42,600 nt of DNA, from positions 1-42,600 of the forward strand of contig CAYTYC010000011.1 in NCBI GenBank assembly GCA_964442255.1. Direction: 5' to 3'. This document shows, piece by piece, positions 27,001 to 36,000 of this stretch; positions within the stretch are counted from its first letter, which is position 1; every line of letters starts with the position of its first letter. The position numbers were made by a program. Source of the DNA: an uncultured archaeon. Lineage in GTDB: Archaea; Iainarchaeota; Iainarchaeia; Iainarchaeales; 1-14-0-10-31-34.

Positions 27001-30000
27001 TTTTATCAAAAGTTTCTCCGGTACCTCTCTTAAGGATGAGAACTTTCCTTTTACTTTGGGGTGAACGCGTCATGCGGGCAGTTGTTTGCGTCCTTGTTTG
27101 CCGGAATTTTTTCATTGTTTCTTGAGTAGCCACAAAAGCCTTTTCTTTCCATGTCTCTCCGAAAATGCCGGCACAAAGAGCAGGTCGGCATTCATTTCAC
27201 CTTTGCTTTAAGGGAAAGCCTTTTTTTTCTTGCAAGAATTCCCGCAACAACCAAAACAATTCCCATAACCAAAACAGGGCTTGATTCTGCTGCATTTACT
27301 GTTCTTTGTTGCCCAAGGTAAACCCTTTCTTCCGCGTGGTTGTTTGAAGTGTTTTCCTCCCCTGCAAGAGCTGGAACCATTACTCTAAAGGCGTAGTAAT
27401 CGCGTTCAATGTCCGCAATTGCTGAACTTAAGTCTACGGGGTCAAATGGAATTTGGGTAGTTTGCTGTGCAGGCAACAAGAAACTTGGTTTGGTGCTTGA
27501 ATGTTTTTCCTGGTTGGTTGTTGAATCCATTATTTTCAAGATAATGTCAACTGTTTTGTCTTCATCCGTGTGGTTTGTCACATCCGCGTTTACGTTCACC
27601 GTGCTTTCTGTTCCAACCGTGCCTCCTTGTGAATCCCGTACAACCACGGAATCAACGCTTAAAGCATCCGTGAAAGGGCAGGGCTCCTCGCTTTCGCACA
27701 AAAAATAGACTTCCTGGCTTCCTGGAATTCCTTCGCTCCACACAATGCAGGGCCTGCCCGAACTGTCGCATTGAAGCAATGCGTCCCCCGGCAGTTCTTG
27801 AGTTGAAAATTGTTCTTCTTCTCCCCACTCTCCGCCTGTTTGTGTTTTAAAAAAAACCGTATTTTCATTGTCGCCGTTAGTCCAGGCAGTATAGACCTTG
27901 CCGTTTGGGCAGATGCACATCGCTGTCCTGTCTTTGTCCAGCAGGCTTTCAAGAGCGGATTCATTTATTTGCAGGCCTTGTTCTTCATAGTTTGTCCAGC
28001 TGTTTTCCGTTCCTTCGGATTCTTTTATTATGTGTCCGTCCCCTGAAGCTTTTTGCCTCCAAACAATGTACGGCTTGTCATTTGAATCCAGGCCAAATGA
28101 GAGCAGGAACCCTTTTGTTGAAGCGGGGGCTATGTGCCAGATTTCATTGTCTCCGTCATCCGGTTTTGGTTTCCATTCGCTTCCGTTCCAGTAAACATAA
28201 TGGATGCTCTGCTCTTCTGCAACGCTTCCTTCAGCCCACGCAAGGCGGGGGTAATTTGTTGAATCGTAACCAAGTTTTGGCAGGTAGCTTGTCTTCTCGC
28301 TGCTGGACACCAGTGAGTCTCCTAAAGGAGTCCATTGCCCGCTGGCTGCATCCCAATATTTGTAATAAGTGGATTTGTATGTTTTGGGGCCGATTGTTCC
28401 AATCCATGCAACGCCAATCTTTGTTCCGTCAGCGCTCACGCTGACATCTGGTTCCTTGACTTTTTCGTCGGAAACCACGTTTTTGCACCCTTCTTGTCCG
28501 TCTTCGGGCATCTCCTCCCAACCGGTTTCGCCCCATGTTTTTGCGCAAATTCCTTCGCCTTGGTCGCTGTAAACAACCAACGGCCTTTCCTGCCCCCCTT
28601 CTTCAAAAAAAACAAGGCTTGGCGGATCAACTTCCACGTCATCGTAAATTTCCCCGACAGTGCCTAAGTCCTTCCATTCACTGCCATTCCAATAACCAAA
28701 TCTAACCGCCCAGTCGCCTTCCCCGATTGAATCCAGGTAAGCAACCCCCGGGTTGTTTTCCGAGTCAAATTCAAATGAAGGAAGATTTAATGAACCGGCC
28801 GCAAAGCTGACTGTCTTGTTTTCAAAGCCTTCCTCGATTGTGCACCAATAGCCGGAAACCGTTGAAAAAAGCAGTAAAGCAAGTAAAGCAGTCAGCAGGG
28901 GCTTAAGCATTTTTTTTCACACGTAATCCTATTCTTTTCCCTGAATAAAAACCTTTTCTTTTCCTTTCCGGCTTAACTTATTAAATTCTTTCTTCCTCTT
29001 TTAATCAGCCTTTTTTGGAAACCCTGCAAAGCCTTCGGCTTTTGCGGAGCCGCGTGAAGTGTGGCTTCACGTGGAGGCTGGCGAAAAAAAAACGGTTCAG
29101 CCACATTTTTTTGGAGGAAAAAAAAGGCCGAAAAAAACGGGTTTGGGAGTGAAGAAAAAATGGTGAAAATCGCGATAAACGGATTCGGAAGGATTGGAAG
29201 AATGGTTTACCGCGCCGCGCTAAACCAAACGGATTTGGAAATAGTTGCGGTAAACGACTTGACTGACGCAAAAACTTTGGGGCATTTGCTGAAATATGAT
29301 TCAGTTCACGGAGTTTTAAGGGAAGAGGTGAAGGTGGAAGGAAATTCCCTGAAGGCAGGCGCACAGGAAAGCAGGGTGCTGAAAGAGGCTTCCCCGGAAA
29401 AGCTTCCCTGGAAGGATTTGGGTGTGGAGGTTGTTTTGGAGTCCACAGGGGTTTTCAGGAAAAAAGAGGACGCGGAAAAGCATTTGAAGGCAGGCGCAAA
29501 AAAGGTTGTCCTCTCCGCGCCCGCAAAGAGCCCGGAAATTCCTTTCGTTGTATTGGGGGTGAATGACGAGGCCTTAGAGAAAGAGCCTGAAATTGTTTCA
29601 ATGGCTTCCTGCACAACCAACTGCTTTGCGCCTGTCGCAAAAATTTTGGAGGAAGAATTCAAAATCGTTTCCGGGCTTATGACCACAGTGCATTCCTACA
29701 CAAACGACCAAAGGATTCTGGACCTTCCGCACAAGGATTTGCGGAGGGCGCGTGCAGCCGCCCTTTCAATCATTCCCACGACCACGGGCGCGGCGAAGGC
29801 CGTGGAAAAAGTCATTCCATCCCTGGAAGGAAAACTGAACGGCCTGGCTTTAAGGGTTCCAACCCCGAACGGCTCAATAACTGATTTTGTCTGCGAAACC
29901 GAAAAAAAGCCGGGCGCTGAGGCAGTGAACAACGCGTTAAAGTCCGCCTCTGAAGGAAAGCTTAAGGGAATAATGCAGTACTCCGAGGAACCGCTGGTTT

Positions 30001-33000: not shown

Positions 33001-36000
33001 ATTGACTGCACAGCCAGGCAGCTCCTCTCCTACGGTTTTTCCGACAGGGAAATGTTTGTTTCCCTTGAAAGGTTAATGCATTGCGGGATTGGAAAATGCA
33101 ACCACTGCGCGGTCGGCGAGCACCGGGTTTGCGTGGAAGGGCCCGTGTTTTCGTTCCATGAAATGAAGAGGTTTCCGCATGAAGAATAAACTTTTTAAAA
33201 AAAAGTTTAATCAAAAGAACCTTTTTGAGAAAAAGGTTCATCAAAAAGCAGGCGGGAAAGTGCCTTACGGCAATAATAAAAAAAAGAAACTGCGTGCAGG
33301 CTTTTTTTCCTTCACCGGCTGCGAGGGATGCCAGCTCACTGTTCTTGAGGCTTTGCAGGAGCACCCTGAACTGTTAAAGCTTTTCAGTGTTGAATACAAC
33401 AAACTTTTAAAGGACTGCAAACTAAAAGGAACTTATGGCGTGGCTTTTGTGGAGGGCAGCATCTCCAACAAGGAAACATTAAAGAAAGCGCAGGAAGTGA
33501 GGAAAAAATCCCGTTACCTTGTTGCATTGGGCTCCTGCGCAACCAATACCTGCGTGAACGGCTTCCGAATGCGGGTTCCGGCTGAAGTGAGGAAACAGAT
33601 TGAAAGGGAGAGGGGCGGAAAAAAAGATTTCGGGGTTTTTCCACTGAAAAAATTTGTTGAGGTTGACTTTGAGTTAAGGGCCTGCCCGCCGATAAAGGAA
33701 GAGCTCATTGAATTCATTTCAGATTTTTATTCAGGGATTAAGCCAATTGAACGCGACTTTCCTGTGTGCAAGGAATGCAAGGAAAACGAGAATGACTGCG
33801 TTTTCCTGCGCGGAATTCCCTGCCTTGGCCCAATCACCCGCGGAGGATGCAATTCCGTGTGCGTGAATGAGGGCGCCCAGTGTTTTGGCTGCAGGGGATT
33901 AAGCAGGGAAGCCAATCTTCCCCGTTTCAGGGAACTCTTAAAGGAAATCGGGCTCTCTAAAACGGAAGTAAATGAGCTCTTGAATGAGTTCAGCGCTGAA
34001 ATGGGGCTGAAAAAAGGTGAGCGGAACAGGGTTAGGCAGGGCGGAGGAAAAGGGGGCTGAAAAAATGAGCGAAACATGGTTGAGGCAGAGGAAAAAGGGC
34101 TGAAAAAAAATGCATAACCTTGATTTAAGCATCACCGGTTTAAGCAAGGTGGAAGGGCACGCTTCCCTCACCGTAAAGGTGCGGAACGGAAAGGTTTTGA
34201 AAAGCAGGCTGGAGATAGAGGAGAACAGGAGGTTTTTTGAGCAAATGTCCGTGGGAAAGGACTTTAAAACCTTGCCTGACTTCATGTCCCGAATCTGCGG
34301 AACCTGTTCTCCCGCGCATTTTCTCACAACACTTGAGGCTGTTGAGGACGCATTCAATGTGAAAATCTCGCGCCAAACTTTGGTTTTAAGGCACCTGATT
34401 GAATTCGGAATGTACATCCGCGACCATTCCCTTCACTTGCTTATTTTTTCGCTTCCCGATTACCTTGGCAAAAAATCTATTTTGGATTTTAAGGGTCGGG
34501 AGCACGAGTACCTGCATTTGGCGATGCGCCTCCAGAAGCTTGGCTCCAACTTAAGCAGGCTTGTTGCAGGCCGCGCACTCCACCCAATAAGCGCAAGGAT
34601 TGGAGGGTTCAGGAACTTTCCTTCGGAACAGGAAATTGATGCTGTTCTCAAGGAGCTTTTGAACGGAAGAAAAGACGCCTTGAAACTGATTGACTTGTTT
34701 AGTTCCTTCCATTACGTTTGCCACCAGCCCACCGTTTACTCCGCTTTGGTGAACAAGGATTACACTTTTCTTGAGGGAAAGATTTGCGCGTCCACAGGCC
34801 TGTGCATTAATGAGCGCGATTACCTGAAGCATTTGAAGGAAAAGGTCGTGCCTTACTCGAACGCAAAGCAGTCCGAACTGCAGGGAAAAGAGTTTTTGGT
34901 TGGCGCGCTTTCCAGAATGAACTTGAACCAGAAATCCCTCCACAAGGGCACAGGAAGGGTGATAAAGGAAAAGAAAATCAAATTGGTGTGCTTTTCCCCT
35001 TTTTCCAACAACTTGGCGCAGGCAATTGAAGTCTTGCATTGCCTGGATTGCGCCGTTGAATTGCTTCGCTCCCTGAAAATCCGGCAGGAAAAAATCCCGG
35101 AATTTAGGCCCCGCGCAAAGGAAGGAATAGGCGTAACCGAGGCCCCGCGCGGAACCCTCTATCACGCCTACAAATTCAATGCTTTGGGAAAGGTTTCCGG
35201 CGCAAACATTGTTGTTCCCACCGCACAGAACGCGAAAAACATTGAGAAGGACGTGAAGCTTTACCTCTCTTATTTAACCGGATTAAAGAAGAACAAAACT
35301 GAAATCCGCACCGAATTGGAGAAGTTGATCCGCGCCTATGACCCCTGTTTTTCCTGCTCAACGCACTTTTTGAAGATGAAGTGGGTTTAATTGATTCCTT
35401 TTGCTTGGCGGGCTTTCGATATATTTAAATTAGATTTATCCAATTTAGATTATTGGGTAATAAACTGGTTTTAGGTGAATGGAAAAAAATCAAAAAGTAT
35501 GCCGGCCAGTGGGTTGCGGTTTGCAGAAATAAAGTTATTGCCCACGGGAAAGACGGCAAAACGGTTTACAGGGAAGCACTCCGTGCCTGCAGTGCTCCTC
35601 GGATTTTCCAAGTGCCTGATGAATCAGACGAAGTGTACCTTTTATGGTTTTAGTTTTTGACTACCACCAGATAGGCAAACGGTTTCTTCCAATAATTCCA
35701 GTCAAAATTGGGGGTGGCGGCATTAAGCTGATTGAAACGGAAGCGTATGTTGACTCTGGGGCCGGTTTTTCGGCTTTCCATACTGCCATTGCAGAACTTG
35801 CCGGTATTGATTACAAAAAAGGGGGGCTCGTTTATCCAAAGGTAACAGCCGGGCACATTAAGGCGCATAAAGTGGCTGCTGAGCTTGCCATTGGAAGCAC
35901 TAAATTTAAATGCAGTGTGCTGTTTTCCAAGGGGCTAATGACAAGGTTTAACCTGCTTGGCTTGAAGGGAGTTTTCGACAATTTCAAACTAACGTTTGAC

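Follow-up and report, generated by a model that had tools for sequence, protein, structure and literature searches.

In an uncultured archaeon of the order Iainarchaeales, the genes for glyceraldehyde-3-phosphate dehydrogenase (GAPDH) and phosphoglycerate kinase (PGK) lie on one strand with those for the beta, gamma, delta and alpha subunits of a hydrogenase (positions 29160-35390, +, of the window, by which we mean the whole 42,600-nucleotide stretch of DNA analyzed), and the fusion of PGK to the hydrogenase beta subunit (HydB) in a relative is real and inherited. We think it somewhat probable that the locus is a co-transcribed redox/ATP unit, in which GAPDH and PGK would work together with a cytoplasmic, NAD(P)-linked group 3b-type [NiFe] hydrogenase, mostly releasing H2 or sulfide. 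The genome-wide survey's note had already drawn attention to these genes: its observation is confirmed, on stronger support than it had stated, while its interpretation is partly supported. Its suggestion that a glycolytic enzyme fused to a hydrogenase subunit was undescribed also stands, as a full-text literature search found no published description of a PGK-hydrogenase subunit fusion.

Our reading of the open reading frames and their family matches agrees with the six-gene set of that note (from 29061/29160-30152 to 34110-35390, all +). The first gene encodes a type I (bacterial-type), phosphorylating GAPDH (29160..30152, +; Pfam Gp_dh_N and Gp_dh_C; TIGR01534 at 431 bits vs a cut-off of 367), the frame of which opens with a GTG at 29061, although the alignment to homologues begins only with the ATG at 29160; the protein carries the catalytic SCTTN as well as VAVND/LDLPH, and it is the single full GAPDH match in the genome. 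The 400-residue PGK that follows (30166..31368, +; PF00162 at 310 bits, profile positions 5-379 of 379) is likewise the sole match in the genome, with the NGPxGxxE and GGGDT stretches among the columns that do not vary across 13 aligned operon PGKs. As the note had claimed, the end of the PGK gene contains the HydB start codon: the sequence, read directly, has an 8-base overlap, ATGCATAA (31361..31368, +), within a junction (31357-31371) that reads aaaaATGCATAAgcc. HydB itself (31361..32368, +; Fer4_22 97 bits) is an iron-sulfur protein resembling HydB/ShyB and AsrA (ShyB 181 bits and AsrA 169 bits, both below the equivalog cut-offs), with a match to PDB 9nez_B, "Sulfhydrogenase 1 subunit beta" (E = 1.7e-43), and with cysteine motifs that are invariant in nine aligned sequences. 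The HydG/ShyC-like gamma subunit, HydG (32365..33189, +; FAD_binding_6, NAD_binding_1 and DHODB_Fe-S_bind; PRK08345 249 bits, HydG 221 bits), with its FAD, NAD(P)-binding domain and 2Fe-2S site, would be the place where NAD(P)H binds. The small (delta) subunit, HydD (33179..34060, +; Oxidored_q6 72 bits, ShyD 176 bits), and the [NiFe] hydrogenase large (alpha) subunit, HydA (34110..35390, +; NiFeSe_Hases, ShyA 265 bits), complete the series, the spacings of which are, in order, 13 nt, -8, -4, -11 and 49 nt. By its sequence, the enzyme appears to be a group-3b-like [NiFe] hydrogenase of sulfhydrogenase kinship; the sulfhydrogenase NCBIfam models match the operon subunits well under their equivalog cut-offs.

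In a member of the same family (genome G003, contig C60, 6481-8682, -), PGK and HydB form a single 733-residue frame without a stop codon, with GAPDH upstream and gamma, delta and alpha downstream; we re-obtained the coordinates, the residue spans and the identities that the note had given for it (residues 1-398, 49% identical to the PGK of the window; residues 404-722, 41% identical to its HydB). This fused gene is the sole PGK match of its genome. An AlphaFold2 model of the fusion (pLDDT 81.5, pTM 0.75) has the last PGK helix at 389-396 and the first HydB strand at 404-408, about 7 residues apart, with a pLDDT of 77-86 across the joint. Two more genomes that a search table suggested as fusions (G087 and G096) were rejected, TAA and TGA stops being present between the genes. 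The unfused PGK-HydB pairs that were examined (n = 18) comprise 8 that overlap, 2 that abut and 8 with gaps of 3-94 nt.

HydB is present in 28 of the 196 genomes of the order, and in 27 of these (families f1, f8, f20 and f28) PGK lies directly upstream of it; in the 28th (G175, family f5), PGK is 3 kb off. The note was thus right about the adjacency, and its count of 16 Iainarchaeales genomes was too low; given the kinship of the genomes, 27 of 28 represents far fewer independent events than is apparent. In a species-level genome collection, PGK was adjacent at 18 of the best 80 HydB loci, 3 kb off at one and absent from the flank at 61. Of these 61, 52 are bacterial, 7 belong to other DPANN archaea and 2 to Methanothrix; the upstream sequence of one, L090, is just 340 nt long. 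The PGK-linked HydBs form one clade (SH-aLRT 95), the members of which share pairwise identities of only 33-42%. In two genomes (G035 and G168) GAPDH is on a different contig, with PGK and HydB still paired. HydA is more widespread, being found in 54 of the 196 genomes, and relatives of the kind that the note described, with delta and alpha and no PGK, were seen here too: at the three such loci that were read (G002, G018 and G023), a shortened small subunit (159-213 aa) stands beside HydA, and genes for beta, gamma and PGK are absent. That these delta-alpha hydrogenases have no adjoining PGK indicates that the PGK link is to the beta-gamma module.

The large subunit retains both CxxC motifs that bind the metals, RICGTCSPAH and DPCFSCSTHFLKMKWV, with a 7-residue C-terminal tail past the histidine of the motif, and all four Ni-Fe cysteines are kept in each of the 15 readable large subunits from 20 related loci screened. 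Regarding maturation, the note had reported the genes as missing. This held for HypD (0 of 5 genomes searched) and for HypE and HypF (0 of 5 over the cut-off), in genomes that are 89-94% complete, and the activity of the Ni-Fe site thus cannot be taken for granted. It did not hold for HypC, which was found in all five genomes (in four over the cut-off): a 73-residue HypC-like chaperone with the N-terminus MCLTLPG is encoded in the window (38601..38822, -; PF01455 30.1 bits vs a cut-off of 28.5). Nor are other maturation parts lacking altogether, since family f20 keeps HypA and HycI and, downstream of hydA, a neighbor of the operon that is outside the core claim encodes a 126-residue protein (36496..36876, -) with homologues beside hydA in 14 loci. 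In this protein family D16, D55 and H81 are invariant; no Pfam family was matched at E <= 1e-4, and the best PDB match of its profile, a weak one (E = 0.09), is 5ija, "Hydrogenase-specific maturation endopeptidase," so that it is probably a divergent hydrogenase maturation endopeptidase. Between these genes lie an EamA-family transporter (36917..37819, +) and a DUF6390 protein (37812..38609, +), both assigned by Pfam. The pair accompanies the hydrogenase genes, being found downstream of hydA in other loci as well, including those with delta and alpha only, and DUF6390 occurs in 44 of 54 HydA-positive vs 14 of 142 HydA-negative genomes.

The note itself had worried that, with one metagenome-assembled genome to go on, a missed stop or a frameshift could have mimicked the fusion. 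Every record does come from a metagenome assembly, and one JGI contig is broken inside the PGK part (P0123 plus P0122); yet no stop interrupts the junction in five records (P0001, P0121, P0122, P0002 and P0003; identities 100%, about 99%, 88% and 56%) from four sources (NCBI, ENA, JGI and Logan assemblies), including the JGI record that has its break elsewhere, and an artefact of assembly or sequencing is therefore extremely improbable. Another question is whether the arrangement is simply a historical accident, in which a hydrogenase cassette landed behind a bacterial-type gap-pgk operon and compaction and neutral loss of a stop codon did the rest, with co-expression as the most that was gained and the proteins coupled neither physically nor kinetically. 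A single origin would be enough, as all PGK-linked HydBs are one clade. Within family f1, the order is GAPDH-PGK-hydBGDA-...-EamA-DUF6390-HypC-LeuRS in the window, GAPDH-PGK-EamA-DUF6390-HypC-LeuRS in G001 (and in G002, with LeuRS unmatched in the stretch fetched) and GAPDH-PGK-LeuRS in G004; the hydrogenase cassette behaves as a block that can be inserted or deleted between PGK and EamA, which fits an old accident that was inherited, and from this series it is dispensable and PGK can work in its absence. The fusion is also rare (among the best 150 matches from 1.84 billion representative proteins, both halves are covered by only two 50%-identity clusters) and close at hand, since at two loci (L016 and L017) PGK and HydB are in frame with one TGA between them, a single point mutation away from fusion. 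Against this, the adjacency has outlasted divergence to 33-42% identity in five families, even where GAPDH itself was relocated (G035 and G168); 10 of the 18 unfused junctions overlap or abut; in 27 of the 28 genomes, PGK and hydB have stayed without a gene between them; and the fusions, which form one clade (support 98), have been kept from a common ancestor to 56% identity between its two branches and, in G003, supply the only PGK. On balance, mere accident seems rather doubtful to us, and the genetic hard-wiring that the note proposed is well borne out by the tight operon, the adjacency across deep divergence, the frequent overlap of start and stop codons and the inherited fusion.

Two further explanations accept the linkage and differ in the chemistry. 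In one, no H2 is involved: without a normal Ni-Fe(CN)2CO center, an AsrA/AsrB-like beta-gamma pair would act as an NAD(P)H-dependent reductase of sulfur, polysulfide or another substrate, re-oxidizing glycolytic NADH. Besides the HypD, HypE and HypF results, it can draw on beta and gamma, which the AsrA and AsrB models match with scores nearly as high as those of the sulfhydrogenase models, and on the Pyrococcus sulfhydrogenase, for which S0 and polysulfide are substrates for reduction (PMC7304191, section 9). We regard it as unlikely, however, because the retention of the four metal cysteines, the small subunit, HypC, the probable endopeptidase and, in f20, HypA and HycI would be hard to explain without a matured metal site; moreover, CPR bacteria share the pattern seen here, with HypC alone adjoining 3b hydrogenases (PMC7304191). 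The other explanation is a gluconeogenic module driven by H2, with the same anatomy, in which H2 uptake would supply NAD(P)H and PGK and GAPDH would use it with ATP to reduce 3-phosphoglycerate (3-PG) to triose phosphate, much as these two enzymes do in the Calvin cycle, here with the source of reductant built in. None of the 8 genomes searched yielded a pyruvate kinase or a phosphofructokinase (the latter by a search that left out the ADP-dependent and PfkB-type kinases, so that upper glycolysis is still feasible), whereas PEP synthase/PPDK (PPDK_N) was present in 8 of 8; such a complement of enzymes is as compatible with H2-driven reduction of 3-PG as with fermentation. Together with the gluconeogenic FBP aldolase/phosphatase in the family of the window and the fusion (G000 and G003), the failure to find the two kinases favors H2-driven sugar synthesis. 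The DNA is present in a microbial mat metagenome, one genome (G087) has RuBisCO, which yields 3-PG, and other archaea point the same way: soluble hydrogenase I of Pyrococcus is usually assigned the uptake of H2 to make NADPH, and gluconeogenesis is what GAPDH and PGK serve in Thermococcales. The aldolase/phosphatase is, though, missing from 6 of the 8 genomes, a search for RuBisCO came up empty in the other 4 of 5, and all 14 operon GAPDHs with a readable N-terminal motif keep the Asp that we take to be the residue of NAD-specific, glycolytic enzymes. Enolase and PFOR were present in 5 of 5 genomes; among the same number searched, neither lactate dehydrogenase (Ldh_1_N) nor [FeFe] hydrogenase was found in any, which favors H2 release, and Fe-ADH was over the cut-off in one, so that fermentation of sugars or nucleosides would need this hydrogenase as its outlet for NADH. 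The H2-driven module is thus a tentative possibility. The fermentation module put forward by the note is plausible from the missing sinks and the NAD-type Asp, and it is weakened by the kinase and PPDK counts.

Under the redox/ATP unit that we prefer, GAPDH would interconvert glyceraldehyde-3-phosphate (GAP), NAD+ and Pi with 1,3-bisphosphoglycerate (1,3-BPG) and NADH, and PGK would interconvert 1,3-BPG and ADP with 3-PG and ATP. Electrons would pass between NAD(P)H at gamma, the iron-sulfur clusters of beta and delta and the Ni-Fe site in alpha, for a predicted net reaction of GAP + Pi + ADP <-> 3-PG + ATP + H2, or with sulfide instead if polysulfide is the acceptor. More often than not, the unit would run in the fermentative sense and release H2 or sulfide, since searches of most genomes turned up no alternative sink for NADH; at high H2 it would reverse. 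The note's idea that NADH is re-oxidized on the spot is, alone, insufficient for the anatomy, since the partner fused to the hydrogenase is PGK, which handles no electrons, and the GAPDH that makes NADH is unfused and sometimes outside the operon. We suggest that PGK is made in step with HydB where their stop and start codons overlap or abut; in one sublineage it is covalently joined to the HydB N-terminus with some 7 residues between, and free PGK would similarly bind to the complex. PGK would thus be seated on the half of the hydrogenase that takes in electrons (beta-gamma), where a single GAPDH may both have its 1,3-BPG removed and its NADH exchanged. As the operon and the fusion suggest, ATP-yielding sugar chemistry and hydrogen gas may be directly linked in these tiny archaea.

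At 29160-35390 the plus strand of the window carries a head-to-tail array of six genes that joins two glycolytic enzymes to the four subunits of a [NiFe] hydrogenase. A type I glyceraldehyde-3-phosphate dehydrogenase (GAPDH; 29160-30152; Gp_dh_N and Gp_dh_C in Pfam; 431 bits on TIGR01534, whose cut-off is 367), with the catalytic SMASCTTN present, is followed by a phosphoglycerate kinase (PGK; 30166-31368) that matches PF00162 with 310 bits, from position 5 to 379 of the 379-position profile, and whose motif columns are invariant across 13 sequences. Then come the beta subunit, an iron-sulfur protein of the HydB/ShyB/AsrA kind (31361-32368; Fer4_22), the gamma subunit, a HydG/ShyC/AsrB-like FAD/NAD(P)/2Fe-2S protein (32365-33189; family matches), the small (delta) subunit (33179-34060; Oxidored_q6) and the large (alpha) subunit (34110-35390; NiFeSe_Hases), the last carrying RICGTCSPAH and DPCFSCSTH, then seven residues. 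The spacings along the operon are 13, -8, -4, -11 and 49 nt, and in the window sequence ATGCATAA is common to the PGK stop and the HydB start. Two DNA runs, from different samples of one microbial mat study, contain the stretch, the second with no listed differences, and no RNA run is listed for it; one contig of run X1, possibly the source of the window DNA, spans 29000-35500 without differences, and the short X2 contigs cover the operon stretch with none listed. A sigma-70 promoter and terminator scan of 28800-36200, a kind of scan unsuited to archaea, returned 1 promoter-like and 14 terminator-like sites, no excess over the 4.4 and 15.3 of the shuffles.

The best NCBIfam names of all four hydrogenase subunits are sulfhydrogenase Shy/Hyd models, with bit scores (ShyA, 265 against a cut-off of 700; ShyB, 181 against 690; ShyC, 211 against 600; ShyD, 176 against 460) that all lie far below the equivalog cut-offs; this argues, at the level of sequence, for an enzyme of the group 3b type that is related to those of Pyrococcus and is neither their equivalog nor their orthologue, our one tree being of HydB and free of classified reference sequences. 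The four subunits are encoded together here and as the same set in relatives, and HydB aligns at E = 1.7e-43 with 9nez_B, the beta chain in the sulfhydrogenase I structure. All four metal-binding cysteines are kept in every large subunit read, the trailing His being replaced by Tyr in motif L1 of the relative G003 and by Asn in motif L2 of locus L023. Sulfhydrogenases I and II of Pyrococcus furiosus (HydBGDA and ShyBCDA; 9nez, 9nf0) have identical subunit types in the same order and share the L1 and L2 cysteine motifs with the window enzyme; unlike them, however, the window operon includes GAPDH as well as PGK, the latter fused to the beta subunit in a relative, searches of its genome found no HypD, HypE or HypF, and its host is a small-genome DPANN archaeon and no hyperthermophile.

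The fusion occurs in G003, where a single 733-aa frame on contig C60 (6481-8682, minus strand) has PGK at residues 7-386 and Fer4_22 at 623-717 (Pfam), scores 339 bits on the PGK model and is 49% (PGK half) and 41% (HydB half) identical to the window proteins, with GAPDH before it and gamma, delta and alpha after it; the frame, the two identities and the gene order are as described in the genome-wide survey's note. The fused gene is the sole PGK match in that genome and must therefore act as the cell's PGK. A search of a 5.8-billion-protein collection with the HydB half, covering proteins of 403-1283 aa, returned three two-domain proteins, namely P0001, P0002 (733 aa, 88% identical, from a Logan contig) and P0003 (571 aa, 56% identical, from JGI, its N-terminus cut by a contig end), the other long hits being beta-gamma fusions or different architectures. 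The 90% cluster of P0001 adds P0121 (733 aa, with a few residue differences; ENA) and P0122 (419 aa, beginning within PGK and crossing the junction; JGI), and the break in JGI between P0122 and P0123 (290 aa) falls within PGK, away from the joint. With the junction open in these five records from four sources, the missed stop that the note had allowed for is excluded and the fusion is genuine.

The PGK-HydB fusion is thus real but rare: among the best 150 hits of a whole-fusion scan of 1.84 billion representative proteins, P0001 and P0003 alone span both halves, and the other long PGK proteins in that library (PGK-PGK, PGK-PfkB and cytidylyltransferase-PGK) carry no Fer4_22. The three fused sequences form one clade on the HydB tree (quick IQ-TREE; SH-aLRT 98), which points to one fusion event, retained down to 56% identity. 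Two further candidates, G087 and G096, were rejected, since TAA and TGA stops lie between PGK and HydB; their open-frame values (795 and 777, respectively) came from a column that read through stops. An AlphaFold2 model of the fusion (pLDDT 81.5, pTM 0.75) places the last helix of PGK at 389-396 and the first strand of HydB at 404-408, with pLDDT 77-86 at the joint, so that the linker is predicted to be short and ordered, with no long tether. This model used alignment A5, in which free HydB rows begin at about residue 61, in place of A3, which spread the N-terminal 60 residues of free HydB over PGK columns; low confidence at 429-464 is probably due to the shallow alignment there.

Fusions of either partner have precedents. 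In the Thermotoga PGK/triosephosphate isomerase (NF010569, the sole NCBIfam match of the window PGK, through its PGK half only) the PGK C-terminus is likewise joined to the next product of a gap operon; there, however, the partner is the next glycolytic enzyme, whereas in G003 PGK is joined to an iron-sulfur protein belonging to a redox enzyme. Sulfhydrogenase beta-gamma fusion proteins (about 630 aa) are very common among long HydB-bearing proteins, and one is recorded for archaea in the accessible part of a fusion survey (PMC11237513), which mentions this hydrogenase fusion alone; they join subunits of the same enzyme at the HydB C-terminus, in contrast to the PGK fusion, which brings in an outside enzyme at the HydB N-terminus.

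When the 196 genomes of the order were searched with the fusion protein, its HydB half was matched in 28, and in 27 of these (families f1, f8, f20 and f28) the PGK half lay directly upstream on the same strand; in the remaining genome (G175, family f5) PGK is 3 kb upstream of HydB. In a species-level collection, from which the best 80 of 269 HydB loci were taken with 4.5 kb flanks, PGK is directly upstream in 18 and 3 kb away in one, and none of the other 61 of these 80 (52 bacterial, seven from Micrarchaeota, Aenigmatarchaeota or Nanoarchaeota, two from Methanothrix) has PGK in its flank, L090 offering only 340 nt upstream. The PGK-linked loci are assigned to Candidatus Iainarchaeum or simply to "archaeon", apart from one, L023, that is assigned to Candidatus Falkowbacteria and whose GAPDH-PGK-hydBGDA nonetheless nests within the archaeal clade, the bin probably being mislabelled. 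On the HydB tree all 21 PGK-linked rows fall within one clade of 23 (SH-aLRT 95), in which HydB identity is 33-42% and whose nearest relatives are Micrarchaeota and Aenigmatarchaeota enzymes; the clade also contains the 3-kb case and L029, whose long branch groups with that of the window.

Among 18 unfused junctions, eight overlap (seven of the [A/G]TGA type and the 8-base overlap of the window), two abut, with an in-frame TGA followed by ATG, and eight have gaps of 3-94 nt. In the two abutting loci (L016 and L017, near 4492-4497) PGK and HydB share a frame with a lone TGA between them before the ATG, so that one point mutation or stop read-through would give a fusion. PGK C-terminal tails of 56 and 66 residues precede the stop in two loci of the f20 type (L020, 4312-4482; L023, 2994-3194), at the position of the fusion site in G003; the tail read in L008 is of low complexity, rich in Pro, Gln and Glu. 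At most loci GAPDH stands ahead of PGK, but G035 and G168 have it on another contig with PGK-HydB intact; what is conserved, then, is the pairing of PGK with HydB and not that of GAPDH with the hydrogenase. L029, assigned to Nanoarchaeota and the sole HydB locus of the clade without PGK, has an archaeal-type GAPDH (1703-2728, minus strand; 341 aa; Gp_dh_C and DapB_N) in divergent orientation 1.8 kb upstream of hydB, and may represent a second, independent GAPDH-hydrogenase neighbourhood.

HydA is found in 54 genomes of the order and HydB in 28, so that 26 have a hydrogenase without HydB. At three such loci (L093, L094 and L095, from G002, G018 and G023) a shortened small subunit of 159-213 aa accompanies HydA, with no beta, gamma or PGK, which agrees with the survey's account of relatives that keep delta and alpha only; since the HydB-less loci read lack PGK, the PGK link goes with the beta-gamma module. 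The order thus holds both forms that, in the portion of the paper available to us, are described for the group 3b hydrogenases of CPR bacteria, "hyd1" with beta and gamma and "hyd2" with only a shortened small subunit and a large subunit (Jaffe et al., 2020; PMC7304191), the three loci resembling the latter. A patchy distribution, reduced genomes and a HypC-like gene nearby are common to both groups, but no glycolytic gene is listed in the CPR hydrogenase context in that portion of the paper.

The survey's note had maturation genes missing, a claim that holds in part. Family searches of five genomes (G000, that of the window, G003, G027, G035 and G087; 89-94% complete) found no HypD, and no HypE or HypF over cut-off, only paralogue-level matches; HypC, however, is present in all five (over cut-off in four) and lies in the window at 38601-38822, its product starting MCLTLPG, while HycI was found in three of the five and HypA over cut-off in two. 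A 126-aa ORF (36496-36876, minus strand) without Pfam match recurs next to hydA in 14 loci, Aenigmatarchaeota among them, and D16, D55 and H81 never vary; searched against the PDB, its profile scores best, if weakly (E = 0.09), with the hydrogenase maturation endopeptidase 5ija, and the ORF is probably a divergent HycI-like protease overlooked by the family search of the window's genome. In its favour we dropped another candidate maturation protease, the 130-aa ORF at 35644-36036, for which a search of the other loci found no homologue; its weak retropepsin-like Pfam matches (E of about 2.5e-4) are under the cut-off. An EamA transporter, DUF6390 and HypC (36917-38822 in the window; also L096, L097, L098, L094, L095 and L008) accompany hydrogenase genes, and this grouping is seen at delta- and alpha-only loci as well. 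DUF6390 occurs in 44 of 54 HydA-positive and 14 of 142 HydA-negative genomes (11 of those 14 in family f27), which weakens the idea that it is strictly hydrogenase-bound; it is a candidate for an accessory role in genomes that lack HypD, HypE and HypF. The DUF6390 gene of the window (37812-38609) contains a direct repeat of about 23 residues, RMAKHLDSCRISWGEVLKVKGE twice in tandem, and its match to the DUF6390 model is split in two (profile positions 4-163 and 145-239); the repeat reflects tandem duplication within the gene or else an error of assembly.

Family searches of the five genomes found neither Ldh_1_N nor an [FeFe] hydrogenase, with Fe-ADH over cut-off in the window's genome only; PFOR and enolase are present in all five and RuBisCO in one (G087). 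When G171, G175 and G168 were added, aldehyde:ferredoxin oxidoreductase was found in one of the eight genomes (G035), PPDK_N (PEP synthase/PPDK) in all eight, pyruvate kinase and phosphofructokinase (PF00365) in none, and FBP aldolase/phosphatase in two (the window's genome and G003). GAPDH is single-copy in all eight of these hydrogenase-bearing genomes, with a weak extra fragment in G027, and PGK is single-copy in the window's genome and in G003. The Asp ending the second strand (V-A-V-N-D) is present in all 14 operon GAPDHs with a readable N-terminal motif, and the window GAPDH also has L-D-L-P-H; we take these to be the residues that make Bacillus GAPDH NAD-specific, and if they mean the same here the hydrogenase must use NADH.

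The reading to which we commit is that the operon is a coupled redox/ATP module. PGK and HydB would be made in a 1:1 ratio, with PGK probably kept on the beta-gamma half, and NAD(H) would be exchanged between GAPDH and the gamma subunit, the net reaction being GAP + Pi + ADP <-> 3-PG + ATP + H2 (or sulfide). PGK would be the thermodynamic motor: by holding 1,3-BPG low it would let GAPDH sustain the high NADH/NAD+ ratio required for proton reduction, which may be why PGK and not GAPDH is tied to the hydrogenase. The GAPDH reaction costs about +6 kJ/mol, PGK yields about -19 kJ/mol and the step from NADH to H2 costs about +18 kJ/mol; on these textbook values the standard-state sum is near +6 kJ/mol, low H2 makes the overall reaction favourable and high H2 reverses it, so that the unit is poised to be reversible.

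The direction in which it runs is thus a question in itself, and here the fermentative re-oxidation of NADH proposed in the survey's note stood only in part. That other NADH outlets are scarce speaks for the hydrogenase as the sink of GAPDH-derived NADH, as proposed, but the lack of pyruvate kinase and phosphofructokinase in the eight genomes, together with the gluconeogenic FBP aldolase/phosphatase in the window's family, argues that the enzymes also, or mainly, run sugar-ward with H2 as the reductant. We consider it unlikely, if well worth keeping in view, that the physiological direction is the reverse of the one we favour.

We would give slightly less credence to an old insertion inherited without physical coupling, an explanation that agrees with the single origin of the PGK-linked HydB and with a clean cassette series within family f1, in which the order GAPDH-PGK-hydBGDA-orf130-orf126-EamA-DUF6390-HypC-LeuRS of the window becomes GAPDH-PGK-EamA-DUF6390-HypC-LeuRS, without hydBGDA, in G001 (likewise in G002, where LeuRS was unmatched in the stretch fetched) and GAPDH-PGK-LeuRS in G004, which has no match to a hydrogenase or DUF6390 and lacks EamA and HypC too. 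That the complex is not a hydrogenase at all, a reading kept alive by the failure to find HypD, HypE and HypF, has but a small probability; the cysteines kept in the large subunits read indicate that the metal site is under selection.

The coupled module could be taken a step further, to a view that we offer as speculation and think doubtful, in which the hydrogenase would be a docking platform carrying PGK, fused or bound to HydB, and a GAPDH tetramer on the beta-gamma half, with a reduced and partly new maturation route. Electron transfer from NADH to protons is otherwise unfavourable; in such a "hydrogen-coupled substrate-level phosphorylation machine" it would be driven uphill jointly by the strongly exergonic PGK step and by NADH passed on locally, so that a cell without a respiratory chain or other NADH sink could gain ATP from triose phosphate with H2 as its sole reduced product, and the machine would be reversible on H2. 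The conserved neighbours EamA, DUF6390, HypC and the divergent endopeptidase would belong to the route that replaces HypD, HypE and HypF.

The window also encodes, at 205-6317 and 15382-22078, an archaeal type IV pilus/secretion-like cluster (two KaiC-like ATPases, two T2SSF and one T2SSE) and a pair of very large surface proteins in which fn3, PKD and F5/8 type C domains occur.

Already known are group 3b hydrogenases from DPANN and CPR genomes, with beta and gamma subunits like AsrA/AsrB, as well as fusions of beta with gamma and of PGK with TIM. The accessible full-text literature, supplements aside, yielded no account of a hydrogenase operon that includes PGK or GAPDH, nor of PGK fused to a hydrogenase, in keeping with the survey's suggestion that the fusion is undescribed; the available parts of PMC7304191, PMC11216029 and PMC6349859 mention neither, and PMC10936187, as far as its text was accessible, notes "an NiFe-type hydrogenase" in two assembled genomes and nothing further.

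Group 3b hydrogenases are widespread in the small-genome DPANN and CPR, which make up much of subsurface and mat diversity, and their partner and direction have so far been guessed from gene lists. This genome names a partner: the sole PGK and usually the sole GAPDH of the cell appear to be coupled, through probable co-transcription, to the NAD(P)H-input half of the hydrogenase, and one lineage has PGK covalently attached to that half. A construct for biochemistry and cryo-EM is ready to hand in the natural fusion protein, and the unit, if it runs towards H2, would be of interest for NADH-driven biological H2 production. For the organisms themselves, this link offers a handle on NADH balance in obligate fermenters without lactate or ethanol pathways, on whether substrate-level phosphorylation can pull H2 evolution from NADH, and on the exchange of H2, giving or drawing, with neighbouring organisms.
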